This document shows, piece by piece, positions 6,777 through 47,802 of a stretch of 64,000 nt of DNA. Source of the DNA: Gammaproteobacteria bacterium. Its GTDB lineage: Bacteria; Pseudomonadota; Gammaproteobacteria; Eutrophobiales; Eutrophobiaceae. The stretch lies in NCBI GenBank assembly GCA_021773215.1, contig JAJFKM010000041.1, forward strand, positions 1,099 through 65,098. Reading direction: 5' to 3'. The position numbers and the translations under genes are program-made. The notes below the pieces were generated by a model that was not told the origin of the DNA, did no database searches, and saw only the letters and a program-made list of their open reading frames with translations. How positions within the stretch are numbered: position 1 is the first letter of the stretch; the number at the start of each line of letters is the position of its first letter.

Positions 6777-8209
6777 GCAACGAACTTCTTATCTTTATTC
6801 CAACGTACAACGAAAGAGAAAATGTTGAAAGTATTATTATGGATATCATGGGACTTAGCTTGTCTGCCGATATCCTCTTCATTGACGACAGTTCGCCAGA
6901 TGGCACTGGTGATCTGCTAGAAGAATTTGCTTGTAAGTATGAAAATGTGATTGTACAACATCGAGCAGGAAAGCTTGGCGTCGGAAGTGCACACAAACAA
7001 GGGATTAAGTGGGCTTATGATAATGGATACAAGCTTTTGATTACAATGGACTGCGATTTTACGCATTCACCTAAAAAGATTATAGATTTTTTAAAGAAGT
7101 CTGATGATGCGGATGTGGTTGTTGGTTCACGTTATATGGATACGAATAGTCTTGTTGGGTGGAATCTGTTCCGTAAATTGCTAACTAATCTTGGGCATTC
7201 ACTAACTAAGTTTTTCCTAAAAATGCCTTACGATGCAACAGGTGGTTTTCGTCTTTACCGGCTTGATAGTATTTCATCTGTTTTTCTCAACTCAATATAT
7301 TCATCCAGTTATTCATTCTTTTTTGAGAGTCTTTATGTGTTACACCTCAATAACTTTAGAATTGTAGAAATATCTACTGTGCTTCCAGCACGAGTATATG
7401 GTCACTCAAAAATGCGCATCATTGATGCATGGTATAGTCTTATGCATCTAGTAGATATCTATTTTACAACTTTGCTTAATCGTGAGCGCTTCGAATTTGT
7501 GGAGCCCTTCAACTCGACAACAAAAAATCTTAAAGAGGATAAGGACTGGAACAATTATTGGTCCGGAAAGGATAAGCCAACACATCTTGTTTACGATCTT
7601 ATTGCTGCATTTTATAGAAGGTTTATCATTCGGCCGTCACTTAATCATTTTATCAGAAAGTATTTTGACCGGGATTCACAAGTTATGCATGCTGGATGCG
7701 GTAGTGGACAGGTAGATATTGGTATCGCAGATTACATCAAGATATCGGCGATCGATATTTCGGTTCAAGCACTTAGCATATACAAGAAAACAAACAAACA
7801 TCATCAGGAACTAATACATGGCTCTATTTTTTCTATCCCTGTGGAGAATGATTTTTATGATGGTATATACAATCTCGGAGTAATGGAGCACTTTCCCGAA
7901 GATGAAATTGTGAAAATACTATCAGAATTTCATCGCGTGTTAAAACCTGATGGCAAGTGTGTTCTGTTTTGGCCACCTGAATTTGGACTAAGTGTCATTT
8001 TCCTCAAATTTGTTCATTTTATTCTCAATCGGGTACTCAAAAAAGATATTTTGCTTCATCCAGCAGAAATAACTCGAGTTACATCAAAAGCTCAAGTTGC
8101 AGACTTTCTGAGTAAGACTGGGTTTTCATTGGTCGAATACAGTTTTGGTATTCGTGATTTTTTTACCTATGTGGTGGTCATAGGACAAAAGACTACTCAG
8201 AGGACCTAA
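6773..8209 (+). CDS. bifunctional family-2 glycosyltransferase (DPM1-like, N-terminal) fused to a class I SAM-dependent methyltransferase (C-terminal)
   Basis: N-terminus IFIPTYNERENV...LFIDDSSPDGT...TMDCDF carries the GT2 DxD/DxS-type motifs. C-terminus HAGCGSGQVDIG...GVMEHFPEDE...LKPDGKCVLFWPP carries methyltransferase motifs I-III. ATGA overlap with the upstream gene. Confidence 0.75.
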   Translation: MSNELLIFIPTYNERENVESIIMDIMGLSLSADILFIDDSSPDGTGDLLEEFACKYENVIVQHRAGKLGVGSAHKQGIKWAYDNGYKLLITMDCDFTHSPKKIIDFLKKSDDADVVVGSRYMDTNSLVGWNLFRKLLTNLGHSLTKFFLKMPYDATGGFRLYRLDSISSVFLNSIYSSSYSFFFESLYVLHLNNFRIVEISTVLPARVYGHSKMRIIDAWYSLMHLVDIYFTTLLNRERFEFVEPFNSTTKNLKEDKDWNNYWSGKDKPTHLVYDLIAAFYRRFIIRPSLNHFIRKYFDRDSQVMHAGCGSGQVDIGIADYIKISAIDISVQALSIYKKTNKHHQELIHGSIFSIPVENDFYDGIYNLGVMEHFPEDEIVKILSEFHRVLKPDGKCVLFWPPEFGLSVIFLKFVHFILNRVLKKDILLHPAEITRVTSKAQVADFLSKTGFSLVEYSFGIRDFFTYVVVIGQKTTQRT

Positions 8210-8210
8210 G

Positions 8211-9113
8211 ATGGTTGTTCAAGAAACTGAACTAGTAGATTTCCCTTGTCCGATCTGTGAAAACGTTGACTATGATGTTATCCATCCCGATACACTAGAT
8301 AATTGCTTACCAGAGTTTGGTTATGATTTTAACAGCAGACATTCGGATCACTATAGAATAATAAGGTGTCAAAGTTGTAGTCATGGGTATTGCTCACCTA
8401 GACCAGCTGATTTATATCGAAGCTATATTGATGTCGAGGATTCAGAGTATTTAAAGAATACAACACAAAGGTTAGAGACGGCGAGTTTAGTAATTGAGAC
8501 TATTAGAAAAATTAAGTTGTCTGGTAGGTTGTTGGACATCGGCCCCGCTACCGGTGACTTCCTTAGTATAGCAAAGAAATACTATGATTCAGATGGCTTA
8601 GAACTATCAAAATGGGCTGCGAATATTGCAGTAAAGAAAGGACACACAATCCATTCCTGCCGATTATCTGAACTCGTAACTAATACCGACTATGATATTA
8701 TCACTATGTGGGGGGTGATAGAACATTTCGAGTTCCCGAAAGATGAGATTATTGAAATTAAAAGGATACTTGCTGCAGATGGGATAGTTTGTTTTTGGAC
8801 AGGGGACATAGATTCCTGGTTGGCTCGGTTGCTCGGTTCAAAGTGGTGGTATATCCAAGGACAACATATACAGTACTTCAGTCAAAGGTCACTGGACAAG
8901 CTATTTGATGAGCAAGGTTTTAAACGCATATATACCGCACGTTATCCGTATGTGATGAGCTTGGAGTCTATGGCAAAATCACTTGGTCGTTATCCATTCA
9001 TTGGACCGTTAGCTAATGCAATTTTTTCTAATAGTCTATTTGGGAAATGGACTATTACATTTCGACTTCCAGGAGAACTTTTCGCAATTTACCAAAAGCA
9101 AGTAAATCAATAA
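8211..9113 (+). CDS. SAM-dependent methyltransferase with an N-terminal Cys4 zinc ribbon (sugar O- or C-methyltransferase family)
   Basis: CPIC...CQSC zinc ribbon, then LDIGPATGDF (motif I), ITMWGVIEHFEFP and LAADGIVCFW. Starts 2 nt after the upstream stop, so it is the third gene of the operon. Confidence 0.7.
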   Translation: MVVQETELVDFPCPICENVDYDVIHPDTLDNCLPEFGYDFNSRHSDHYRIIRCQSCSHGYCSPRPADLYRSYIDVEDSEYLKNTTQRLETASLVIETIRKIKLSGRLLDIGPATGDFLSIAKKYYDSDGLELSKWAANIAVKKGHTIHSCRLSELVTNTDYDIITMWGVIEHFEFPKDEIIEIKRILAADGIVCFWTGDIDSWLARLLGSKWWYIQGQHIQYFSQRSLDKLFDEQGFKRIYTARYPYVMSLESMAKSLGRYPFIGPLANAIFSNSLFGKWTITFRLPGELFAIYQKQVNQ

Positions 9114-36747: not shown

Positions 36748-38643
<1,896 letters not shown>

Positions 38644-38669
38644 TTTGCTGTTTTAAAAGCACTGAACTC

Positions 38670-39962
38670 ATGGAACTCGATAGCCTCATCGAGAAAACAG
38701 CGGATCCCGATGCCACAGCAAACCGACTGCAAGCACTGCTCGATAATGAGCAGTCTGCTCGCATAATTGATGGCTTCACAGATGATCAAAGATCGGGATT
38801 GATACAAATACTCGGAATATCTCGATTTCTATCAAATTTCTTGAGTCGATACCCGGATGTTGTTGCTTTAATAGGATCTCCGTATCAGGCCCGGGAAATT
38901 AATCATATCGCTGATGTTAAAGAGCTACGGCTGTTTAAATATCGTTCTCTATTACAAATTACATGGATGGATGTTTGTAATACTTGCCCGTATGAAACCG
39001 TGTTATTTAATTTAAGCCATTTGGCAGACTCAATAATCCAAGTTGGTCATAGAATAGTGGCTAAAGATTCTAATGATTTTGATTACAATAATGACATCGC
39101 CATCATGGCATTGGGAAAACTTGGTGCAAACGAATTAAATTTCAGTTCTGATGTAGATATTCTTTTTGTGCTTCAGGATAGCGATGATCAAAAACGTCAT
39201 GAAATGCATAAGTACTACACCCAGCATATACGTCGATTTTGTCGCTTATTTACAGATAATACTGAAGATGGTTTTTTATATCGAGTTGATCTAAATTTAA
39301 GGCCATGGGGACGCAGTGCGCCGTTAACATTCTCTCTCGATGAATATGAAGAATATTATCAATCATCCAAAGAGACATGGGAACGAATTGCATGGCTACG
39401 CGGGCGTTTTGTTGCTGGTTCAAAAGAACTAGGTAATGAAATGGTTTCCAGACTAAAACCATTTGTATATCACAAAAGTTTGAGTACAGAAGACATAGAC
39501 CGTTTTTTCAAGATAAAAAGTGATATGTCTGCGCAACGAGAAAAAGAAGGACACTGGAATATAAAGCTGGGCGCAGGTGGCATAAGAGATATAGAGTTTT
39601 TTGTGCAAATGCTGCAAATAATCAATGGTGGACATCATCCTGAACTACAGGTCACTAGTACAGTAGAGGTATTAAAAAAATTAAATCATTTCGGTTTTAT
39701 CAATCATGAAGAAATAACTGAATTAAAAGAAAGTTATATCTTTCTACGCAGGCTCGAGAACCGATTGCAAATGATTGACGAGCAACAAACACATCAATTG
39801 CCTAATGATAAGGTAAAGCTTAAACAAATCACAAGAATGATGGGTTATGCAGGTGAAAGTATTGATGATGCCTATGCAGATTTTAATAATGATTTAATGC
39901 TCCATCAAAAAATTGCGACAAAATATTTTGAAACATTATTAACAGAAAATGCTGATTTCTAA
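38670..39962 (+). CDS. glnE: glutamine synthetase adenylyl-removase half of GlnE (N-terminal nucleotidyltransferase domain) as a separate ORF
   Basis: GKLGANELNFSSDVDILFV...GFLYRVDLNLRPWGRSAPL...KLGAGGIRDIEFFVQ aligns with the E. coli GlnE N-terminal AR domain. Stop overlaps the next ORF's start in TAATG. Confidence 0.8.
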   Translation: MELDSLIEKTADPDATANRLQALLDNEQSARIIDGFTDDQRSGLIQILGISRFLSNFLSRYPDVVALIGSPYQAREINHIADVKELRLFKYRSLLQITWMDVCNTCPYETVLFNLSHLADSIIQVGHRIVAKDSNDFDYNNDIAIMALGKLGANELNFSSDVDILFVLQDSDDQKRHEMHKYYTQHIRRFCRLFTDNTEDGFLYRVDLNLRPWGRSAPLTFSLDEYEEYYQSSKETWERIAWLRGRFVAGSKELGNEMVSRLKPFVYHKSLSTEDIDRFFKIKSDMSAQREKEGHWNIKLGAGGIRDIEFFVQMLQIINGGHHPELQVTSTVEVLKKLNHFGFINHEEITELKESYIFLRRLENRLQMIDEQQTHQLPNDKVKLKQITRMMGYAGESIDDAYADFNNDLMLHQKIATKYFETLLTENADF

Positions 39963-41284
39963 TGAATGATTCTCCTGAAATAAAACAGGCACTGTCCACG
40001 GCATGGCATTCGGAAACTGCTGCGAACAGCATTGAACGTTGGTTAGATCTCTGTCAACAAGAGGGCTGGGAGATGACTGTTGATGCATTAACGCTTATGA
40101 CCTCTTTATTTGGCGCGAGTTGGTATTTCACTCGTTTTTGTTTTTATCGAGGCAATAACATTATCAGCTTATTCGATAATGATGCGCAAAAGGTTGCTGT
40201 GATTGAATCATCATTAGATGATTTAAAAAATATAGCATCGGCTGGTTCATTGGATGAAGCCATTGAACGATTAAGGATTCGAAAAAATGAAATCATGTTA
40301 TCTATCCTGCTACTGCAACTGGGTAGCGTGGTTGATCAGGAGCAAACAGAGGCTTTATTAACACGACTTGCAGAAAATGTATTGATAGTCATGTACAGAT
40401 TATTTGGCCTTGATCAGCTTGAAACGATTCAGTGTAGTGTTTTAGCAATGGGTCGTTTTGCTGGAAATGAGATGAATTACGGTTCAGATCTGGACTTGAT
40501 CTTTATTGAAAAAGTGATGGTTAAAAATAGTGATGAGTACATTGTCAACAAGGTTAGAAAAATGTTGCGCTATATCGCTACTACGGATCCTTCAGGCGCA
40601 CTGTATGAAATAGATATGCGATTAAGGCCCCATGGAAATTCCGGGGTCTTAGTAACACGACTAGAGAGCTTCTTGAAATATCATCAAGCTGATCGTGAAG
40701 TTTGGGAGCGACAATTGATGACTCGTTGTCGAGTCGTTTTGGGGAATTATAATTTATCAGAGCAAGTTAATAATGAAGTAATGAATTATGTCTATGGTGA
40801 ATATGAAGTATCTTATCTTGCCAAGGAAATTATAAAAGTACGTTTGTTAGTTGAGCAAGAACTTGCTGGTGGCAGTGATAAGATAGATCTAAAGCGAGGT
40901 AAAGGCGGGGTCATGGATATTGATTTCTTGACACATTTTTTCCAGCTTGCTTTTGGTGCTAAATATCCACAATTGAGAAGTACAAGCACGCGCCAAGTTT
41001 TAAGGGAATCATCAAAGCTAGGTTTTATCAATGAAAAAACTGTGGTGGAATTATCTGCTTCTTATGATTTTTACAAAAAAAGTGAAGCAGCATTACGCGT
41101 GTTCGATATGAAGTCGATCAGTAATGTCACTAAAGACACGAAGTCTTTATTGCCGCTAGCAAGAGCATCAGCTTTTTTTAATGACGATCATGATAAGGCA
41201 GTAGCTGAATATCTGGATAGATTGATGCTATACCGGGACAGGGTACGTCAAACGTTTGAATCTATACTCCACGCCGCAATTTAG
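39962..41284 (+). CDS. glnE: glutamine synthetase adenylyltransferase half of GlnE (C-terminal nucleotidyltransferase domain) as a separate ORF
   Basis: AMGRFAGNEMNYGSDLDLIFI...LYEIDMRLRPHGNSGVLV...KRGKGGVMDIDFLTHF aligns with the E. coli GlnE C-terminal AT domain. Confidence 0.8.
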   Translation: MNDSPEIKQALSTAWHSETAANSIERWLDLCQQEGWEMTVDALTLMTSLFGASWYFTRFCFYRGNNIISLFDNDAQKVAVIESSLDDLKNIASAGSLDEAIERLRIRKNEIMLSILLLQLGSVVDQEQTEALLTRLAENVLIVMYRLFGLDQLETIQCSVLAMGRFAGNEMNYGSDLDLIFIEKVMVKNSDEYIVNKVRKMLRYIATTDPSGALYEIDMRLRPHGNSGVLVTRLESFLKYHQADREVWERQLMTRCRVVLGNYNLSEQVNNEVMNYVYGEYEVSYLAKEIIKVRLLVEQELAGGSDKIDLKRGKGGVMDIDFLTHFFQLAFGAKYPQLRSTSTRQVLRESSKLGFINEKTVVELSASYDFYKKSEAALRVFDMKSISNVTKDTKSLLPLARASAFFNDDHDKAVAEYLDRLMLYRDRVRQTFESILHAAI

Positions 41285-42716
41285 CCTGCTGAAAGGTTTG
41301 ATTTAGTACAATACAAAGCAGCGCTATTATAAATCCTGGAACGAGCTCATATAGTTCAAACAATCGATAACTGGATTCAATATTTTTCCAGACAATAACC
41401 GTTATGCCGCCTGACATCATGCCGATTACTGCTGAACTTTTATGCATTGAATTCCAGAATAAAGATAAAAGAACAACAGGACCAAAAGTTGCACCAAAAC
41501 CTGCCCAGGCATAGGCAACAAGTTCTAGTACATTATTATCGGGTTTTAAAGCAAGTATTGTTGCAAAAATTGTAATAATGATGACAGCCAGTCGACCGAT
41601 TAAGACCAATTGTTTATCCATCACTTTAACACTTATGATTTTATAAATATCTTCAGTCAGCGCAGAAGAAGCGACCAATAATTGCGAGTCAGCGGTACTC
41701 ATAATCGCCGCCAGAATAGCTGCTAGACATATCCCCGCTGGAACAGGGTGTAAGAGCAAATTCAACAATTCAATAAAAACCTTTTCACTGTCACCACTTT
41801 GTAGTTGATTGCCCAATAGTACGCTACCAGCAAAGCCAATAAACAAAGCGCTCATCAAGCTAATCAGAGTCCAGCTCAAAGCAATTCGTCTGGCTGAAGG
41901 GATTTTCCCAGGAGTCTTGATTGCCATAAAGCGGATTAAAATATGTGGTTGCCCAAAATACCCCAAGCCCCAAGCTAGTAGCGATACGATACCAATAAAA
42001 CCTAATGCTTCGCCCGAGGCCAAGGTGAAGGCATTGATTAATTCAGGGTTTTGCTTCGACATTGATGAGAATAAGACATCGATACCATGAAGATTATAAA
42101 CAGAGATGATGGCGACATAACTCAATGCAAATGCCATCAATAAACCCTGTATTAAGTCGGTCCAGGATACAGCGAGGAATCCACCGAGACTGGTATAGGC
42201 CAGAATGGCAATCGCACCCGTTATAACGGCCCACGTGTAGGACAAGCCAAATACAGATTCGAATAATTTTCCACCAGCGACGAGTCCAGAACTGGTGTAG
42301 AACATATAAAACAATAGGATAAACACTGCAGAAATGATGCGTAGTAAATGACTGTTGTCTTTAAATCGGTTTTCAAGATATTCAGGTAAGGTTAGAGCAT
42401 TATTGAGTAATTCAGTATTGATCCGTAGTCGTGGTGCTACCAAATACCAATTAAGGCAGGTGCCTATAAATAAACCAATTGCAATCCAAATGGCTTCAAA
42501 CCCGGCAAGAAAAGCATAACCAGGTAAGCCTAATAACAACCAACCACTCATATCAGAGGCGCCGGCACTAATTGCTGTTGCCCAAGCCCCTAGTCTTCTA
42601 CCACCGAGTATAAAGTCTGAAAGGCTATGTGTGTTACGCCATGCAACTAGACCAATGACAAAGATCATTACTAGATAAAGTAAAAAAGTAATGAATATGA
42701 CGGTCTGACTTGTCAT
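41262..42716 (-). CDS. sodium:solute symporter family transporter (PutP-like sodium/proline symporter)
   Basis: 484 aa with about 13 TM helices. The SSF signature region GLPGYAFLAGFEAIWIAIG...TSLGGFLAVSWTD is present. Confidence 0.8.
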   Translation of the reverse strand: MTSQTVIFITFLLYLVMIFVIGLVAWRNTHSLSDFILGGRRLGAWATAISAGASDMSGWLLLGLPGYAFLAGFEAIWIAIGLFIGTCLNWYLVAPRLRINTELLNNALTLPEYLENRFKDNSHLLRIISAVFILLFYMFYTSSGLVAGGKLFESVFGLSYTWAVITGAIAILAYTSLGGFLAVSWTDLIQGLLMAFALSYVAIISVYNLHGIDVLFSSMSKQNPELINAFTLASGEALGFIGIVSLLAWGLGYFGQPHILIRFMAIKTPGKIPSARRIALSWTLISLMSALFIGFAGSVLLGNQLQSGDSEKVFIELLNLLLHPVPAGICLAAILAAIMSTADSQLLVASSALTEDIYKIISVKVMDKQLVLIGRLAVIIITIFATILALKPDNNVLELVAYAWAGFGATFGPVVLLSLFWNSMHKSSAVIGMMSGGITVIVWKNIESSYRLFELYELVPGFIIALLCIVLNQTFQQAKLRRGV

Positions 42717-42719
42717 TGT

Positions 42720-43718
42720 TTAAATCGAATCATGACACGGGAAGAATTTTTCAGAAGGGATATGTTCAAGAATAATATCTTTACAGAACTCAAGCATGCC
42801 ATTACGAATCTCAGCAGGGTAGCCGATGTTGTTATCTTCTTCTTCCATGGGCGATGAAAATAGTTTTTCATCAGGATAAAGTTTCTCTACTTTTCGGAAG
42901 TAAGCTTTTGGTAGTCTAAAACTACCTAGACTGACAGAATGGATTAAGTCCAAGTTTATACTTGAGAATACTCGAGTAAATAGCTCTGCGTATTCTTTCT
43001 CATACTCTTTTGTGTAGATTAGCGGATCGAAGCGTAAGCCTATCAGCCAACCGGCTCGTTGTAAGTCAATGATCGCCTTGAGTCGTTTTTCGACATTCGG
43101 TGCTTTGTGTTCCAGTGCTGAGGCGATCTTGTTGGGTGTGAAACTAAACGCGATGACACAGTTTTGAATAGGATCTCGTTTTAATAGATTTCTAATCTGT
43201 GTGCTTTTAGTTCTCAACTCAAGTAATGCTTGTGGGTTCTTTTCAAAGAAGGGTAAGAACTCCTCAGTGAAATTTGTCACGGGATCTAACGCAAGACTGT
43301 CGCAATCATAACCAGAGAAAAAATGCACAGCTTGATCCTTGTGCTGCGCTAATGAGGTTTGCATATCATCGATAAAGTCTTCGTAGTTAATAAACAATAC
43401 ATAATGCGCAGACTGAAACATGCCTTGTAGAAAACAATAGCGGCAGTCATACAGACAATTCAGCATGTGTGAGAAATAATAATTATGATCAGCGCCAATG
43501 GCATACTGCTTAGGCGTGGCCAACACCATACCTTTATGCTTTTTAGCTAGTATTAATGCAGGTTGTTTCTTTTGCAGTCTAAAGTTCTGTGACTTGCGAT
43601 TGAATATTTCACCGTAACGTTCACAAGCCACCTTCGATGCGTCAGGAAATCGTTTTAGAATCTCCAAAGTGCGTGGATGTTCTGCAATCTCTTTTTCTAT
43701 ATAGATCGTGTTAATCAT
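42720..43718 (-). CDS. radical SAM enzyme of the spore-photoproduct-lyase (SplB-like) family
   Basis: CxxxCxxC (CLYDCRYC). N-terminus MINTIYIEKEIAEHPRTLEIL resembles B. subtilis SplB ...LVYIEPRALEYPLGKEL. Start is taken at the internal ATG giving an ATGATTAA overlap with the upstream gene; the track ORF extends to 43778. Confidence 0.65.
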   Translation of the reverse strand: MINTIYIEKEIAEHPRTLEILKRFPDASKVACERYGEIFNRKSQNFRLQKKQPALILAKKHKGMVLATPKQYAIGADHNYYFSHMLNCLYDCRYCFLQGMFQSAHYVLFINYEDFIDDMQTSLAQHKDQAVHFFSGYDCDSLALDPVTNFTEEFLPFFEKNPQALLELRTKSTQIRNLLKRDPIQNCVIAFSFTPNKIASALEHKAPNVEKRLKAIIDLQRAGWLIGLRFDPLIYTKEYEKEYAELFTRVFSSINLDLIHSVSLGSFRLPKAYFRKVEKLYPDEKLFSSPMEEEDNNIGYPAEIRNGMLEFCKDIILEHIPSEKFFPCHDSI

Positions 43719-44529
43719 GGATTGCAAAATCTGACTCGGCGAGTTTGCCCTGTACCTGTTTGTTGAGTGCCTTGCCATTTTTTATATCACGTACAAATTT
43801 CATGATATCATCATCAGGGAATCGGACGGGCCATTGACGTAATAAACGTACAAGCTGTAGACGTTCGGACTGTGTGAAATGGTATTGCTCGATCAGTGTT
43901 TGGTAATGTTCTGGCTGAGTCTTTATTGATCTAAGTTCTTCAGAGAGTGGTTTGAGCGAATCCAACACCTGCTCTATCGTTGTCATATGCTTAGCGATTA
44001 ATTTTTTAACACTATCAGCATTGATCTTGTCAGCAGGGTGTTCCTGATTGTCTGAAACTATCTTTAGGCAATGAATCAATTCGGCAGTACCGAGACGCAA
44101 TGCCATTTGGTAAAAGCCAGCGGCTTCCATATCGAATAGAGCATCTTGATATTCAGTTGAAGGGGTGTCGTGAGTGATCAAAGCAGCACTAGTGCAATCG
44201 GTTTTAAACAATATCTGTGGATACCAGCTTGTTTTGTGTTGATTGTCTGTAATCTTATTAACAAGACACGCCTCGCCAACAGAGATATTCGCATGCCCGG
44301 CAATGCCTATGTTCAACCAAATGTCGGATGAAGATGTATCCAAGCAGGCATGGTGATAAGTTACTGCCGCTGCTGCATTTAGTTTTCCAATACCCGTAAT
44401 AGCGAGGCTAATATTTTTATCTTGAGATTGATAGAGACGAAACAGTTCGAATTCTTTTATTTCACATAGCTTGAAATGTTGAATGAGTGTTTCTGCTTCA
44501 CAGGGAAGTGCACAAAATAGATGAATCAT
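43711..44529 (-). CDS. PNP_UDP_1-family nucleosidase (MTA/SAH nucleosidase, futalosine hydrolase or HpnG-like) with a ~70-aa C-terminal extension
   Basis: Aligns with E. coli MtnN blocks: ITGIGKLNAAAAV vs SGIGKVAAALGA; WLNIGIAGH vs VINTGSAGG; FDMEAAGFYQ vs VEMEATAIAH; LKIVSDNQE vs VRAISDVAD. Confidence 0.65.
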   Translation of the reverse strand: MIHLFCALPCEAETLIQHFKLCEIKEFELFRLYQSQDKNISLAITGIGKLNAAAAVTYHHACLDTSSSDIWLNIGIAGHANISVGEACLVNKITDNQHKTSWYPQILFKTDCTSAALITHDTPSTEYQDALFDMEAAGFYQMALRLGTAELIHCLKIVSDNQEHPADKINADSVKKLIAKHMTTIEQVLDSLKPLSEELRSIKTQPEHYQTLIEQYHFTQSERLQLVRLLRQWPVRFPDDDIMKFVRDIKNGKALNKQVQGKLAESDFAIHD

Positions 44530-44531
44530 CG

Positions 44532-45038
44532 TTATGTGTTTAAAGTATCTTTATTGGCTAGACAGGTATTAATAAAAGATTGCCATGTTTCATCGGGTTC
44601 CCAAACATCTAACATGTCTTGTCTAGCAGTGTCTTCATCACAATCATGTGTAATAACACGGTATAAATAGATGAAGCAGGAGACACGCCAGTTATAAGCA
44701 CAATGTACTAATATGCTTTTTTCTTTGTTTTGATCCATTGCCTGAAAGAAGCGTTCTATATCAGTAGTCTCAGGGTTTTTAAAATCGACCGGGATATGAA
44801 TGTAATCCATGGTGCTTTCCTGCACGACATCATGTTCATTCTCGATTGCACCGGGAGAATCAGGAAAGGCCAAGTTGATGATCAAATCAACACCGGCTTG
44901 TTTTATCGATTTAAACTGGTCAACAGTTGGTTGTGCTGCAGTATGCAGTGTGTCGGATATTTTGCGGTATGTTTTTATGTCTTCAAGCATAGTGTTTTGC
45001 CATGGCCTCAAATTCTTCACAATATTCATTCTTGCCAT
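44532..45038 (-). CDS. dual-specificity-phosphatase-like protein (DUF442/PTP-like fold) with a shortened C-x4-R P-loop
   Basis: VHCAYNWRVS resembles a PTP P-loop but has 4 rather than 5 residues between Cys and Arg. About 165 aa. Overlaps the upstream GT2 gene by 56 nt. Confidence 0.4.
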   Translation of the reverse strand: MARMNIVKNLRPWQNTMLEDIKTYRKISDTLHTAAQPTVDQFKSIKQAGVDLIINLAFPDSPGAIENEHDVVQESTMDYIHIPVDFKNPETTDIERFFQAMDQNKEKSILVHCAYNWRVSCFIYLYRVITHDCDEDTARQDMLDVWEPDETWQSFINTCLANKDTLNT

Positions 45039-45807
45039 GTTTTTCTGCGCCTTTCAGAAAAATGCTTATCTTGTTAGTTAACATATCAATTGCTGCTTCG
45101 CGATCTGAATCGCTTAACTTTTGTGATTCGATGCATTTTTTCAAGGCTATAATTCGAAACCGATCCATGCCCCAATGTTGTCTTGATAATTGGTCTTCAT
45201 GGCCACCAAATTTATTCGTTAACGCCTCGTCAATAAACAACACCGGATAATGGCAACAAATCCGTAACCACATATCGTAATCTTCACATGCCGGGAGGTT
45301 TTCATCAAACAAACCGACCTTATCAAACAGTTCTTTTTTAATTATTACCGATGATGGTGAAATAGCACAAAGTGGCAAGCAGTATTGAAAGATATTGCCA
45401 CCGTGTTTTTCGTGTTTCTGTCCTTGGTTTAGAATCTTGCCATTGCGATACCATATCTCATTGGTATGACATAAGAGATAGTCGGGATTCTCTGTGAGTG
45501 CCTTGCATTGTTTTTCAAGTTTGTCGGGCTGCCAACTGTCATCTGAGTCAAGCAAACAAACCCATTCGCATGTGGTTGCATTTATCCCTGTATTCCTCGC
45601 TGTGCTAACCCCCATATTTGTTTGATTTATATAGCGTACTTGAGAGTAGTTATCTTCGATGAGCTGTTGTGTGTTATCAGTAGACCCATCATCAATAACA
45701 ATAATCTCGGTAGCAGGATAAGTCTGAGCAACAACCGATGCTATAGCGCGTTCGAGAAGCACCGCACGGTTGTAGGTAGGGATTATTACAGCAACTTTTT
45801 TTAACAT
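44983..45807 (-). CDS. family-2 glycosyltransferase
   Basis: VIIPTYNRAVLLERAIASVVAQTY...IIVIDDGSTDNT...LLDSDDSW carries the GT2 DxD motifs. First gene of the minus-strand operon. Confidence 0.8.
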   Translation of the reverse strand: MLKKVAVIIPTYNRAVLLERAIASVVAQTYPATEIIVIDDGSTDNTQQLIEDNYSQVRYINQTNMGVSTARNTGINATTCEWVCLLDSDDSWQPDKLEKQCKALTENPDYLLCHTNEIWYRNGKILNQGQKHEKHGGNIFQYCLPLCAISPSSVIIKKELFDKVGLFDENLPACEDYDMWLRICCHYPVLFIDEALTNKFGGHEDQLSRQHWGMDRFRIIALKKCIESQKLSDSDREAAIDMLTNKISIFLKGAEKHGKNEYCEEFEAMAKHYA

Positions 45808-46106
45808 GCCAAAATAGGTGGTGTCAGTTAGAATAGCGCGCTCACGATAAACGACTTAATCTAACTTGCCAATCGTTGTTGAACGGCACTTAATAAAATA
45901 TTATGTATTTTAAACCAGTAACTTATCATATTACAGTTGATAAACTGTTTACAAAAATAGCCTACGCAAATGATTGCACGTATTTTAGGCCCATTTGCTT
46001 GACGGCAAAAGTCTTGCGTAGACTAACTATGCGCGACTTTTTAGTCGGCGTAACTAAAGCTAAAATACGCACACTCATTTGCGTTCAACTACGATTGGCA
46101 AGTTAA

Positions 46107-46862
46107 ATGGAACGCCTCAAAAATAAAATAGCAGTCATTACTGGTGCCAGCAGTGGTATAGGTGCTGGGATCGCAGCATTATTCGCAAAAGAAGGGGCTG
46201 CGGTTGTTGTTAATTACCGTAAATCCAAAGATAGTGCAGAAAAAGTGGTCGATGAAATTAAGGACATGGGGCAGAGAGCGATTGCTATTCAAGCAGATAT
46301 GGCAAATAAAGAGGATATTGCTCGTCTTATTGCAACAACCTTGTCAGAATTTGGCCGTATTGATATCTGGGTTAATAATGCGGGTGCAGATATTCTTACT
46401 GGTGCGGGTGCATCAGCTAAGCTCGATGAAAAGTTAGACCAACTATTAAACGTTGATCTCAAGGGCACGATGAATGCCTGTTGGTCGATAACATCAATGA
46501 TGCAAGCACAAGGTTCAGGCGTGATTGTGAATATGGGTTGGGACTTATCAACGCATGGATTTGAAGGTACAAACCCACAAATATTTGCCGCATCAAAAGC
46601 AGGTGTATTGGGATTTACCCGATCCTTCGCTAAAACGGTTGGCCCTGAAATTCGAGTCAACATGGTCTCTCCTGGATGGATAGCGACTTCCTTTGCTGAA
46701 GAACATATGCAAGATGAATATTTTCAAGCAAGAATAAAGGAGATTCCTTTAGGACGCTTTGGAAAACCGGAAGATGTAGCAGCAGCAGTTTTGTTTTTAG
46801 CCTCTGATGAATCATCTTACTTATCAGGAGAGTCGATCAATATTAATGGTGGCTTGGTTTAA
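46107..46862 (+). CDS. SDR-family oxidoreductase (FabG-like 3-oxoacyl reductase)
   Basis: TGASSGIGAGIA, NNAG, and the catalytic S...YxxxK (AASKAGVLGFTRSFAK). 251 aa. Confidence 0.85.
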   Translation: MERLKNKIAVITGASSGIGAGIAALFAKEGAAVVVNYRKSKDSAEKVVDEIKDMGQRAIAIQADMANKEDIARLIATTLSEFGRIDIWVNNAGADILTGAGASAKLDEKLDQLLNVDLKGTMNACWSITSMMQAQGSGVIVNMGWDLSTHGFEGTNPQIFAASKAGVLGFTRSFAKTVGPEIRVNMVSPGWIATSFAEEHMQDEYFQARIKEIPLGRFGKPEDVAAAVLFLASDESSYLSGESININGGLV

Positions 46863-46890: not shown

Positions 46891-47271
46891 ATGTCTGAAG
46901 AATCTAAAAAAAATGGTATTAAAGTACGCACAGAAGTCATGGGCGAAAAATTTGTGCAACGTGCTGTTGATAACACGACGGAATTAACTGCACCATTACA
47001 AGACTGGATCAATGAACATGCTTGGGGCTCTACCTGGCAACGTGATGGCTTGCCACGACAAACACGATCATTGATTACTATTGCTATGCTCGCAGCGCTT
47101 AAGTCACCGACCGAATTAAAAGGTCACGTCCGTGGCGCTTTGAACAATGGCTGTTCAGTTGAAGAGATACAGGAAGTATTATTACACTCGGTTGTCTATA
47201 GCGGTGCTCCAGCAGCACAAGAAGCCTTTCGTGCTGCACAAGAAGTTATAGATGAATGGCAAAAAAGGTAG
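46891..47271 (+). CDS. carboxymuconolactone decarboxylase-family protein (gamma-CMD/AhpD-like)
   Basis: VRTEVMGEKF...WQRDGLPRQTRSLITIAMLAAL...ELKGHVRGALNNGCSVEEIQEVLLHSVVYSGAP fits the PcaC-type pattern. Confidence 0.7.
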   Translation: MSEESKKNGIKVRTEVMGEKFVQRAVDNTTELTAPLQDWINEHAWGSTWQRDGLPRQTRSLITIAMLAALKSPTELKGHVRGALNNGCSVEEIQEVLLHSVVYSGAPAAQEAFRAAQEVIDEWQKR

Positions 47272-47286
47272 TGTTTCTATAAACAA

Positions 47287-47802
47287 TCAGTAATGAATCA
47301 AAGAGTGAACATTATATTTAGATAGTTTCTCTCTGCCTTTCAGGAAATCCAGTTCAACTACAAACGCACAGGCAGCGACTTCAGCGCCCAGCTTTTCAAT
47401 CAATTGGCAACTGGCCGCTGCAGTACCACCGGTTGCGATAAGATCATCAACCAATAACACACGGTCTCCTTTCTTCAGAGCATCGGTATGGACTTCCAGT
47501 GTGGCTGAACCGTATTCGAGATCGTAGGACATGCTTTGAACGTCATAAGGTAATTTGCCAGGTTTGCGTAATGGGATGAAACCAATGCCGAGTTCCCATG
47601 CAGCGAGGCTGCCGAAGATAAAGCCACGTGCTTCCATTCCTGCTACTGCTGTAATGTTTTCTCCAAGGAATGGATGAATTAATTGATTTACTGCTAGCCG
47701 CAGCATGGCAGGTTCTTTGACAAGCGGAGTAATATCCTTGAACTGTATGCCTGGTTCAGGAAAGTCCGGGATATTACGAATATGAGCTTCTAAACGTTTC
47801 AT
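47287..47802 (-). CDS. apt: adenine phosphoribosyltransferase
   Basis: 171 aa. PRPP-binding motif VLLVDDLIATGGTA and the flexible-loop region. Confidence 0.9.
   Translation of the reverse strand: MKRLEAHIRNIPDFPEPGIQFKDITPLVKEPAMLRLAVNQLIHPFLGENITAVAGMEARGFIFGSLAAWELGIGFIPLRKPGKLPYDVQSMSYDLEYGSATLEVHTDALKKGDRVLLVDDLIATGGTAAASCQLIEKLGAEVAACAFVVELDFLKGREKLSKYNVHSLIHY

Follow-up and report, generated by a model that had tools for sequence, protein, structure and literature searches.

A widespread, uncharacterised GT2–NUC–SPL–oxidoreductase gene cassette and its version in a gammaproteobacterial lineage

The DNA analysed here, a 64,000-nucleotide stretch of a gammaproteobacterial contig (hereafter the window), contains a gene cassette that is widespread and uncharacterised, in the version found in one lineage. 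Comparison of 160 related loci and six contigs of Lachnospiraceae shows a conserved set made up of a GT2 glycosyltransferase, an MTAN-fold nucleosidase (NUC), a radical SAM enzyme of the spore photoproduct lyase (SPL) family and a carbonyl oxidoreductase. Three of the four genes that an earlier note on this DNA had grouped together, plus a neighbouring reductase gene, make up this cassette, while the PTP-like phosphatase and the symporter PutP are lineage-specific additions outside the core. The cassette probably builds a ribose-derived side chain on some molecule, rather than acting in DNA repair. No literature on the enzyme family of the cassette was found.

Table 1. Features of the cassette region in the window.
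Feature	Coordinates	Strand	Remarks
PutP sodium/proline symporter	41262..42716	-	TIGR02121 match
SPL-family radical SAM enzyme	42720..43718	-	332 aa; start revised
NUC, MTAN-fold purine nucleosidase paralogue	43711..44529	-	272 aa
PTP/DSP-like phosphatase, atypical, putative DUF442 type	44532..44990	-	152 aa; start revised to M17
GT2 glycosyltransferase	44983..45807	-	274 aa; soluble; DSDD motif; leads the string
Intergenic region SDR1/GT2	45808..46106	.	299 nt
SDR1 short-chain dehydrogenase, glucose-1-dehydrogenase/FabG-like subfamily	46107..46862	+	divergent from GT2
CMD-family protein, PcaC-like	46891..47271	+	downstream of SDR1

The four minus-strand genes had been described as overlapping throughout. 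All four ORFs were found with the outer coordinates given previously, but the inner boundaries had to be corrected and one junction is a spacer (Table 1). The longest ORF of the phosphatase would extend to 45038, which is the source of a claimed 56-nt overlap with GT2. However, most orthologues have a frame that closes immediately upstream of the Met equivalent to M17 of the window protein, and the start was therefore placed at this residue, reducing the overlap with the GT2 stop to 8 nt (ATGCTTGA). The phosphatase and NUC, thought to overlap by about 2 nt, are separated by a 2-nt spacer. Since the nearest homologues of the SPL-like protein are nearly all 332 aa long (range 328-346 aa, among 120 matches listed), its start was moved from 43778, the longest ORF, to 43718 (MINTIYIE), resulting in an 8-nt overlap with the NUC stop (ATGATTAA). 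PutP begins 3 nt past the SPL-like stop in the same direction, so that the string comprises five genes and, by position, is not the closed four-gene operon once proposed. The intergenic region is presumed to be a shared promoter region for SDR1 and GT2; a promoter scan yielded weak sigma-70-like matches that were no commoner than in shuffled sequence, and an Rfam search of the region gave no match.

The family assignments of the four genes are upheld by profile searches. GT2 matches PF00535 (125.5 bits, threshold 23.3), with DSDD as the DxD motif, and has a chondroitin synthase domain as its best solved relative (E 7e-28), while it reaches none of the NCBIfam equivalogs (best TuaG, 94 bits, cut-off 400). 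The PTP-like protein matches PF22741 (36.5 bits, threshold 27) and 3GXG, a 'putative phosphatase (DUF442)' (E 2.4e-27), with the HCxxNxR loop aligned. Its own loop, HCAYNWR, has the C-x4-R form and is conserved in 21 orthologues; judged by sequence, it is a putative DUF442-type phosphatase. PutP scores 618 bits on its equivalog TIGR02121 (cut-off 515.5), and the CMD-family protein matches PF02627 (87 bits) and scores 137.6 against 155.7 on TIGR02425.

Neighbours were counted at assessable loci in two independent samples, one of genome loci and one of metagenome loci. NUC lies directly upstream of the SPL-like gene at 35/75 and 39/61 loci, which together with gene fusions (see below) places this adjacency far above chance and answers the question of neighbourhood conservation raised earlier; roughly half of all SPL-like genes lack NUC as a neighbour. 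GT2 orthologues (217-574 bits) stand directly upstream of NUC at 31/67 and 21/45 loci, and no locus has GT2 without NUC (NUC present at 52/52 GT2 loci); they form a dedicated subfamily that accompanies NUC. The phosphatase occurs only where GT2 and NUC are both present (20/20). It is confined to the lineage of the window (18/67 and 2/45 loci) and missing from many clusters otherwise identical to the window's, and can no longer be counted as a core member. PutP follows the SPL-like gene at 20/78 genome and 2/62 metagenome loci and is probably a passenger on the transcript rather than a member of the module, and the CMD gene, which adjoins SDR1 in some related loci only, is not a conserved partner. 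De novo clustering of the neighbour genes revealed no additional recurrent gene pointing to an acceptor.

The gene found most constantly with the radical SAM gene encodes an NAD(P)-dependent carbonyl oxidoreductase, and these two form the most constant core of the cassette; the divergent SDR gene of the window had been regarded as a bystander, a view that the data do not support. This slot is taken by one of three enzymes, namely SDR2, an aldo-keto reductase and SDR1, the last of these in the lineage of the window. SDR2 lies downstream at 41/78 and 38/62 loci and in 6/6 Lachnospiraceae contexts, and the aldo-keto reductase takes its position in locus L131. SDR1 matches PF13561 (194 bits) and the NCBIfam 'glucose 1-dehydrogenase' subfamily PRK07231 (221.9 bits, cut-off 215), and is not an orthologue of SDR2 (13-36 bits). 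At genome-set loci (31/66) without the usual downstream SDR2, it lies divergently next to GT2 and, judged solely by this complementary distribution, is probably the oxidoreductase partner in the window's lineage. Eight GT2-NUC-SPL loci of the metagenome set have no oxidoreductase adjacent to them.

NUC has the MTAN fold with the MTAN catalytic Glu/Glu/Asp. Residues E11, E135 and D160, corresponding to MTAN Glu12, Glu174 and Asp197, are invariant, fusions included, and suggest that NUC is able to catalyse the release of adenine. It is nevertheless a highly divergent MTAN paralogue with a new 85-aa domain and, judged by sequence, not the housekeeping MtnN, in line with the dedicated partner that the earlier note proposed: it scores 21.2 bits on the MtnN equivalog PRK05584 (cut-off 169), is 16-21% identical to solved MTANs, and none of the 15 NUC members scanned reaches any MTAN cut-off. 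Unlike MtnN (Pfs), it has at its C-terminus a conserved helical stretch of some 85 extra residues and always adjoins, or is fused with, the SPL-like enzyme. Within the 64-kb window there is no second MTAN-like ORF. The best but weak NCBIfam match of 15/15 members is the futalosine hydrolase MqnB (TIGR03664; 30.9, cut-off 124.7), by which an identity with MqnB is rejected. HpnG is rejected likewise: at E <= 1 the 15 members matched 13 NCBIfam families, none of which bears the HpnG name, and the radical SAM partner of NUC is an SPL-family protein. Such divergent paralogues, HpnG and MqnB among them, usually show altered specificity for the 5'-substituent.

In Lachnospiraceae, NUC and the SPL-like enzyme form a single protein of ~650 aa. 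Fusions make up about 22 of the best 150 50%-identity cluster representatives, those of the Lachnospiraceae type number 120 among the matches listed, and the structure model of the fusion has a pLDDT of 91.2 and a pTM of 0.89. Conserved adjacency with translational coupling, together with this Rosetta-stone fusion, demonstrates that the two enzymes are functionally coupled, in agreement with the partnership proposed for them before.

The SPL-like protein is a full-length SPL homologue (PF20903, 73.3 bits, gathering threshold 27), sharing with SplB (PDB 4FHC-4FHG) the fold, the N-terminal YIE motif and the CX3CX2C cluster motif (C88-x3-C92-x2-C95, within CLYDCRYC). It matches SPL entries in the PDB at E 1e-16, the best being 4K9R, a Y98F mutant. 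Its K171, S192 and R268 align with Lys174, Ser195 and Arg273 of 4FHC, which have SAM-binding roles in SPL (PMC3467042), and the equivalent of Tyr96 is kept. However, it is only about 18-25% identical to SplB and remains far below the cut-offs of the SplB equivalog TIGR04070 (99.8 bits, cut-off 400, residues 22-318 aligned) and its sister model TIGR03886 (82 bits, cut-off 437.55). As to the SplB residues that were to be checked, the window protein and its clade have Phe96 in place of Tyr98, although a Firmicute-type subgroup keeps Tyr, and Cys140 aligns with Tyr137. C139, two residues downstream, is invariant in the close clade only, with Gly, Ser, Asn or Thr elsewhere in the family, all fusions included, and no fourth, H-donating Cys is conserved family-wide at the Cys140 (G. 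thermodenitrificans), Cys141 (B. subtilis) or Clostridium Cys77 positions. The protein is therefore not an orthodox spore photoproduct lyase, as suspected from the outset, and in contrast to SplB it is found in non-sporulating hosts and has a nucleosidase and a reductase as linked or fused partners.

The reading that we prefer, while holding it tentatively and at somewhat less than even odds, is that an adenosyl group is transferred to an acceptor X, adenine is removed by NUC, the ribosyl C1 is processed by the oxidoreductase and GT2 decorates the product. We infer the adenosyl transfer, the step order and the nature of X as follows. The radical SAM enzyme would cleave SAM reductively and, going beyond mere hydrogen abstraction, would attach the 5'-deoxyadenosyl radical to a taxonomically widespread X, either at an sp2 centre or at a heteroatom, yielding 5'-X-5'-deoxyadenosine. 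NUC, docked on or fused to this enzyme, would cut the N-glycosidic bond to release adenine and 5-X-5-deoxyribose with a free anomeric carbon. The oxidoreductase (SDR2 in most lineages, the aldo-keto reductase in one, SDR1 in the window) would act on the exposed C1, the aldose C1 being the sole carbonyl made by the NUC step itself, either by reduction to a polyol or by oxidation to a lactone or acid. Where encoded, GT2 would glycosylate the resulting product, a placement after NUC that fits the nested gene content. The inserted DUF442 phosphatase of the window's lineage may take off a phosphate, for example if NUC were phosphorolytic. From its linkage and fusion with an adenine-releasing enzyme, the SPL-like protein may belong to the adenosyl-transferring class of HpnH, MqnE and ArsS.

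SPL itself abstracts a hydrogen atom, and we know of no SPL-fold enzyme that transfers an adenosyl group. Several observations run counter to adenosyl transfer. SPL-like genes without an adjacent NUC would need a nucleosidase in trans; the full-length SPL architecture, with hairpin and conserved Tyr, is kept, so that a nucleotide-like substrate is possible; SDR1 and SDR2 are not orthologous; and the eight metagenome loci have no adjacent oxidoreductase.

The nucleosidase had been envisaged as dedicated either to 5'-deoxyadenosine or to an adenosylated intermediate, and the data fit the latter variant better than pure 5'-deoxyadenosine scavenging. The scavenging alternative, which we regard as rather unlikely, has the SPL-like enzyme abstract a hydrogen from a small-molecule or sugar substrate. 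Radical dehydration or dehydrogenation would make a carbonyl, which the SDR or AKR would reduce by the logic of a diol dehydratase and its reductase, and NUC would hydrolyse the inhibitory 5'-deoxyadenosine beside the active site. MTANs do hydrolyse 5'-deoxyadenosine and thereby relieve product inhibition of radical SAM enzymes, and NUC keeps their full catalytic set. The many SPL-like genes without an adjacent NUC are expected if a housekeeping MTAN substitutes, and the constancy of the radical SAM and reductase pair is also consistent with this alternative. A radical SAM diol dehydratase is known in AprD4 (PMC13598754). On the other hand, the low identity of NUC to MTANs and its extra conserved domain would be needless for a generic by-product, and the restriction of GT2 to NUC loci is left unexplained. 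Radical SAM enzymes are numerous in these genomes, and apart from the present one no radical SAM enzyme is known to come with an MTAN of its own, fused or otherwise.

Repair or modification of nucleic acids is improbable. In this view, the SPL-like enzyme of non-sporulating bacteria would, as SPL does, act on a pyrimidine lesion or base of DNA or RNA, and the excised or modified moiety would be processed by the products of the partner genes. The full-length homology to SPL, with the C-terminal domain of the fusion matching 4FHG at a TM of 0.74, the retained SAM-binding residues and Tyr96, the conserved basic N-terminal motif FNR..QNF..QK, and the short beta-hairpin predicted in the fusion model and followed by a conserved Tyr are consistent with it, as is the divergent neighbour in 4/6 Lachnospiraceae contexts, the 23S rRNA m5U methyltransferase RlmD. 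Against it stand the low scores on both SPL-type equivalogs, the exchange of Tyr98 for Phe and the lack of a family-wide H-donor Cys. Furthermore, where SPL has its DNA-inserting basic hairpin (Arg304/Tyr305, Lys309), a region not covered by the HMM alignment, the window protein has an acidic segment (SPMEEEDNNIGYP; SPMEEEDNN). Net charge varies across the family (pI 5.2 to 9.4) and gives no sign of a consistent basic surface, no phage relatives were found, and the partners that recur with the enzyme (nucleosidase, SDR/AKR, GT2) are of small-molecule types, none being a DNA-repair protein.

Very improbable, in our estimate, is a combination in which the SPL-fold enzyme would add the 5'-deoxyadenosyl radical to an RNA or DNA base or a free nucleotide through its inherited pyrimidine pocket, with NUC, oxidoreductase and GT2 trimming and decorating the adduct; if true, this would mean a new ribose-derived hypermodified nucleoside, made by a route without counterpart among known modification pathways. 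Adjacency by chance or by shared ancestry, with no cooperation among the genes, is effectively refuted: synteny alone does keep some neighbours (APRT, CMD, PutP and GlnE around the cluster in the window's lineage), but the start and stop codons overlap, NUC::SPL is fused in Firmicutes and the GT2-NUC-SPL-SDR2 order recurs across phyla and in unrelated genomic contexts.

For each step of the preferred reading, adenosyl transfer followed by adenine removal and the later steps, there is a parallel in a known system. In the futalosine pathway, a 5'-deoxyadenosyl radical is added by MqnE (PMC13459092) and the purine is then removed by an MTAN-family hydrolase (MqnB/MTAN). The cassette differs in having SDR and GT2 instead of Mqn-type partners, and NUC in having its extra C-terminal domain. 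In the arsenosugar (ArsS), SalL/SalT/SalN/SalM and FdrA/FdrC systems, a SAM-derived 5'-substituted 5'-deoxyadenosine loses adenine and the 5-substituted ribose is handled by a phosphoesterase and a C1-acting SDR. Here, ArsS adenosylates DMAs(III) (PMC13598754), and 5-halo-5-deoxyribose is processed by the phosphoesterases SalN/FdrA and the SDRs SalM/FdrC (PMC5947533). Arsenosugar clusters also have a GT2-like protein associated with them, and the window GT2 hits TIGR04283 (66.5 bits, cut-off 182). The SAM-activating enzymes of these systems are unrelated to that of the cassette, no arsenic or halogenase genes were found near the cassette, and its phosphatase is DUF442/PTP-like and restricted to one lineage, not a metal-dependent phosphoesterase.

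In bacteriohopanepolyol biosynthesis, HpnH adds 5'-deoxyadenosine to diploptene and HpnG, a nucleosidase/phosphorylase of the PNP/MTAN superfamily, removes adenine, after which the ribosyl ring opens to a tetrol and the GT2 glycosyltransferase HpnI follows; the BHT-forming step is without an assigned enzyme in a hopanoid review (PMC13459092). The cassette differs in that its radical SAM enzyme has the SPL fold rather than being HpnH, that NUC has no HpnG match and that a dedicated oxidoreductase gene is present. Furthermore, its hosts include Lachnospiraceae and Clostridium, which are not known as hopanoid makers. The analogy to HpnH and HpnG drawn in the earlier note is nonetheless apt. Both systems have the same types of enzymes and, in the reading proposed here, the same logical order: a radical SAM enzyme, removal of adenine, a polyol and a glycosyltransferase.

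The conservation analysis established a nested module, in which a core of the SPL-like enzyme (a radical SAM protein of the spore photoproduct lyase, SPL, family) and an oxidoreductase is extended by the MTAN-like nucleosidase NUC, then by a GT2 glycosyltransferase and, in one lineage, by a phosphatase. Genomic contexts were taken from loci of SPL-like relatives: a genome set of 80 loci from species-representative genomes, found with an alignment of close SPL-like homologues, a metagenome set of 80 loci, found with an alignment of distant family members (27-41% identity), and a third sample of six Lachnospiraceae contexts. The ORFs of every locus were scored against profiles of the window proteins.

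Occurrence of neighbouring genes around the SPL-like gene (loci with the gene/loci scored; SDR2, the SDR subfamily found downstream elsewhere)
Gene and position	Genome set	Metagenome set
NUC directly upstream	35/75	39/61
SDR2 directly downstream	41/78	38/62
Window-type GT2 subfamily upstream	31/67	21/45
PTP-like gene present	18/67	2/45
putP downstream	20/78	2/62

The complete order GT2-NUC-SPL-SDR2 recurs, for example in loci L109, L113, L115, L130, L142, L148 and L164, and NUC accompanies GT2 in all 52 GT2-bearing loci of the two sets. The PTP-like gene, encoding a DUF442-type phosphatase that the earlier note had counted among four operon members, occurs only where both GT2 and NUC are present; given its tabulated counts and its restriction to the lineage of the window, it does not hold as a core member. 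When the neighbouring ORFs were all clustered de novo, NUC, SDR2 and GT2 came out as recurrent partners and none beyond these three; proC, yggT, argB, a HemN-like gene, a glycosidase and others were put down to lineage synteny.

In three metagenome loci of one lineage (L103, L116 and L146), an unannotated ORF of ~265 aa precedes the NUC-SPL pair, which is followed by an ORF of 250 aa that weakly matches a Cas4-like nuclease and by the gene of an ATP-dependent DNA ligase. This is the sole context hinting at DNA metabolism, and the ligase was judged lineage-specific. On a complete gammaproteobacterial MAG chromosome (L032, 5930-7977), an insert of ~1.2 kb separates NUC from the SPL-like gene and breaks the usual overlap. 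An adenine phosphoribosyltransferase, which would salvage adenine released by NUC, is encoded 1.5 kb from the cassette in the window, and many loci of the window's lineage have the gene about as far away. Cassettes of other phyla have no such gene nearby, and lineage synteny probably explains its presence.

The role of the oxidoreductase appears to be filled by three carbonyl oxidoreductases that are either unrelated to one another or related only distantly. In most lineages SDR2 lies downstream of the SPL-like gene. In locus L131, an aldo-keto reductase gene (7915-8970, plus strand; PF00248, E 5e-58) overlaps the SPL-like stop codon in the usual SDR2 position and looks like a non-orthologous replacement of this partner. 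In genome-set loci without SDR2 (31/66), a divergent SDR gene, SDR1, adjoins GT2, which is the arrangement of the window. SDR1 was rejected as an SDR2 orthologue, as it scores 13-36 bits compared to ~110 bits among SDR2s. As it appears to fill the oxidoreductase slot in the SDR2-less loci, the window SDR probably works as part of the unit, whereas the earlier note let it merely follow the operon and overlooked it as a partner. Eight metagenomic GT2-NUC-SPL loci have no adjacent oxidoreductase, so the link is strong but not absolute.

Features of the window around the cassette
Feature	Position	Strand	Profile match or remark
glnE, N-terminal ORF	38637-39962	plus	~440 aa
glnE, C-terminal ORF	39956-41284	plus	~440 aa
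Overlap of glnE and putP 3' ends	41262-41284	convergent	23 nt
Five co-directional ORFs (GT2, PTP-like, NUC, SPL-like, PutP)	41262-45807	minus
PutP symporter		minus	TIGR02121, 618 bits (cut-off 515.5)
SPL-like radical SAM enzyme	start 43718	minus	PF20903, 73.3 bits
NUC		minus	PNP_UDP_1, 34.4 bits
PTP-like protein, small	start 44990	minus	PF22741, 36.5 bits
GT2 glycosyltransferase		minus	PF00535, 125.5 bits
SDR1, followed by CMD-family gene	from 46107	divergent to the five-gene string	SDR1: PRK07231 'glucose 1-dehydrogenase' subfamily, 221.9 bits (cut-off 215)
Adenine phosphoribosyltransferase	47287-47802	minus

Profile searches bore out the family assignments made earlier from the sequence, while none of the four focal proteins (GT2, PTP-like, NUC and SPL-like) reaches an NCBIfam equivalog cut-off. 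The SPL-like start was chosen because the closest homologues are nearly all 332 aa long (328-346 aa among 120 listed) and share the N-terminus MI.TIYIE; its ATG sits within the NUC stop region (CATGATTAA, strand reading). The PTP-like start was placed at M17 because most orthologue frames close directly upstream of the equivalent Met. With spacers of 2 nt between PTP-like and NUC and 3 nt between SPL-like and putP, the close spacing reported earlier is real, but the string comprises five genes and the supposed 56-nt overlap between PTP-like and the GT2 stop is one of 8 nt (ATGCTTGA). Promoter and terminator scans gave matches no better than those in shuffled sequence, Rfam models matched no riboswitch or leader ahead of the cassette, either in the window region or in nine related loci, and an exact-sequence look-up of the window SPL-like protein (352-aa and 332-aa forms) matched no contig. 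Downstream, no terminator-like structure lies between the convergent ends of glnE and putP. In place of one gene of ~950 aa, glnE (glutamine synthetase adenylyltransferase) is divided into two adjoining, overlapping ORFs. It is likewise split in relatives L003, L004, L009, L025, L026, L029-L031 and L066 and a single ORF in L016, L028, L036, L060 and L074; as the split recurs in several related genomes, it looks conserved rather than a sequencing error.

The catalytic residues Glu12, Glu174 and Asp197 of MTAN correspond in the alignment to E11, E135 and D160 of NUC, which are invariant in 81 homologues. All 15 NUC members tested match futalosine hydrolase and MTAN models weakly; none of them reaches any cut-off and none matches HpnG. 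These sub-cut-off matches argue that NUC, judged by its sequence, is not the housekeeping MtnN orthologue, the alternative that had been raised against a dedicated partner. A second MTAN-like ORF was not found within the 64-kb window.

The partnership of NUC and the SPL-like enzyme, suggested in the earlier note, is borne out by their conserved adjacency and by a natural fusion of the two. When representatives of 50%-identity clusters were searched exhaustively, 389 clusters matched at E < 1e-30, and ~22 of the best 150 representatives are proteins of 560-760 aa with a C-terminal SPL-like domain, in which the N-terminal 200-290 residues match the NUC profile (E 1e-37 to 1e-13). At least 120 fusions are among the matches listed in a follow-up search, and all those with a named source come from Lachnospiraceae. 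The fusions keep the equivalents of MTAN Glu12, Glu174 and Asp197 as invariant E11, E153 and D178. AlphaFold models one fusion confidently as a single body (pLDDT 91.2, pTM 0.89), with one half matching MTANs and the other SPL (4FHG; TM 0.74 for the SPL half). An SDR gene follows the fusion gene in all six Lachnospiraceae contexts, and its product scores ~110 bits against the Methylobacter SDR2 compared to 13-17 bits against the window SDR. In another cluster representative (P0306, 491 aa), an adh_short domain begins after the SPL-like domain and is present in part (residues 444-475); this could be an SPL::SDR fusion, or the gene call could be truncated or a read-through. Among the Lachnospiraceae loci (L083/L084, L087, L169 and L171), genes for a SIR2-family NAD-dependent deacylase and a CinA-domain protein follow co-directionally after fusion and SDR in four of the six contexts, and RlmD (23S rRNA m5U methyltransferase) is the divergent upstream neighbour of the fusion in 4/6. 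Either function (NAD/ADP-ribose or m5U chemistry) or synteny could account for these neighbours; since the remaining contexts and other phyla lack them, synteny was taken as the probable cause and they were set aside.

We propose a reading in four steps that would explain every member. The radical SAM enzyme would transfer a 5'-deoxyadenosyl group onto an acceptor, NUC would remove the adenine, the oxidoreductase would act at the aldose C1 exposed by adenine loss, and GT2 would decorate the product. It is also plausible that NUC is purely a scavenger of 5'-deoxyadenosine for the SPL-like enzyme, as about half of the SPL-like genes have no adjacent NUC and we know of no SPL-fold adenosyl transferase. 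Nevertheless, GT2 depends on NUC, and NUC has diverged strongly from MTAN; both points favour adenosyl transfer over scavenging alone.

The SPL-like enzyme may instead act on a nucleic-acid substrate, a possibility kept because the SPL architecture is retained: homology extends over the full length (TIGR04070 aligned to residues 22-318), and conservation includes the cysteines of the cluster, Tyr96 and, as SAM ligands, Lys174, Ser195 and Arg273 (residue roles from PMC3467042). However, the enzyme scores 99.8 bits against the 400-bit SPL cut-off, Tyr98 is replaced by Phe in the clade of the window, the position of the H-donor Cys140 aligns with Tyr in the window protein, and the nearby Cys139 is Gly, Ser, Asn or Thr elsewhere in the family. 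The window segment presumed to correspond to the DNA-inserting hairpin is acidic; the pI of family members ranges from 5.2 to 9.4. A complementary Cys-or-Tyr H-donor pattern across two subgroups was rejected, several members having neither. A search of a viral collection found no relatives of the enzyme and thus no sign of a phage DNA-modification role. The sub-cut-off SPL score, the unconserved H-donor Cys and partners that are small-molecule enzymes uphold the earlier view that the set probably does not serve DNA repair. The combination that the earlier note named as a sign of chance adjacency, full retention of the SplB catalytic residues with no conserved neighbourhood, fails on both points.

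The signature motifs occur in at least 586 species-level genomes, with members in marine Gammaproteobacteria, methanotrophs, Gemmatimonadota, Clostridium and gut and rumen Lachnospiraceae, and this broad spread implies that the acceptor is a common metabolite or macromolecule. Members are named 'DNA photolyase', 'DNA repair photolyase', 'spore photoproduct lyase' or 'hypothetical protein' in databases, and the photolyase and spore photoproduct lyase names are probably wrong. Literature searches returned nothing on the SPL-like subfamily, its fusion or its gene neighbourhood. The cassette is broadly distributed and experimentally tractable, and the natural fusion offers a single polypeptide in which to seek the adduct and its deadenylated product. 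If scavenging were true instead, product inhibition would be solved here by a new architecture, with the MTAN domain built into the radical SAM enzyme.

If the adenosyl-transfer mechanism is true, the cassette would add a further natural pathway that relies on a radical SAM enzyme to donate the entire 5'-deoxyadenosyl group, beside those to hopanoid side chains, futalosine and arsenosugars, and the first built on the spore photoproduct lyase fold. The enzyme families of the cassette are already known and the proposed logic has precedents. In the hopanoid pathway, HpnH and HpnG are followed by formation of the tetrol via ring opening and by the glycosyltransferase HpnI, and MqnE parallels the 5'-deoxyadenosyl transfer step (PMC13459092). 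ArsS is a further documented parallel (PMC13598754), and the SalN/SalM and FdrA/FdrC pairs, each of a phosphoesterase and an SDR, act on 5-substituted 5-deoxyribose (PMC5947533).
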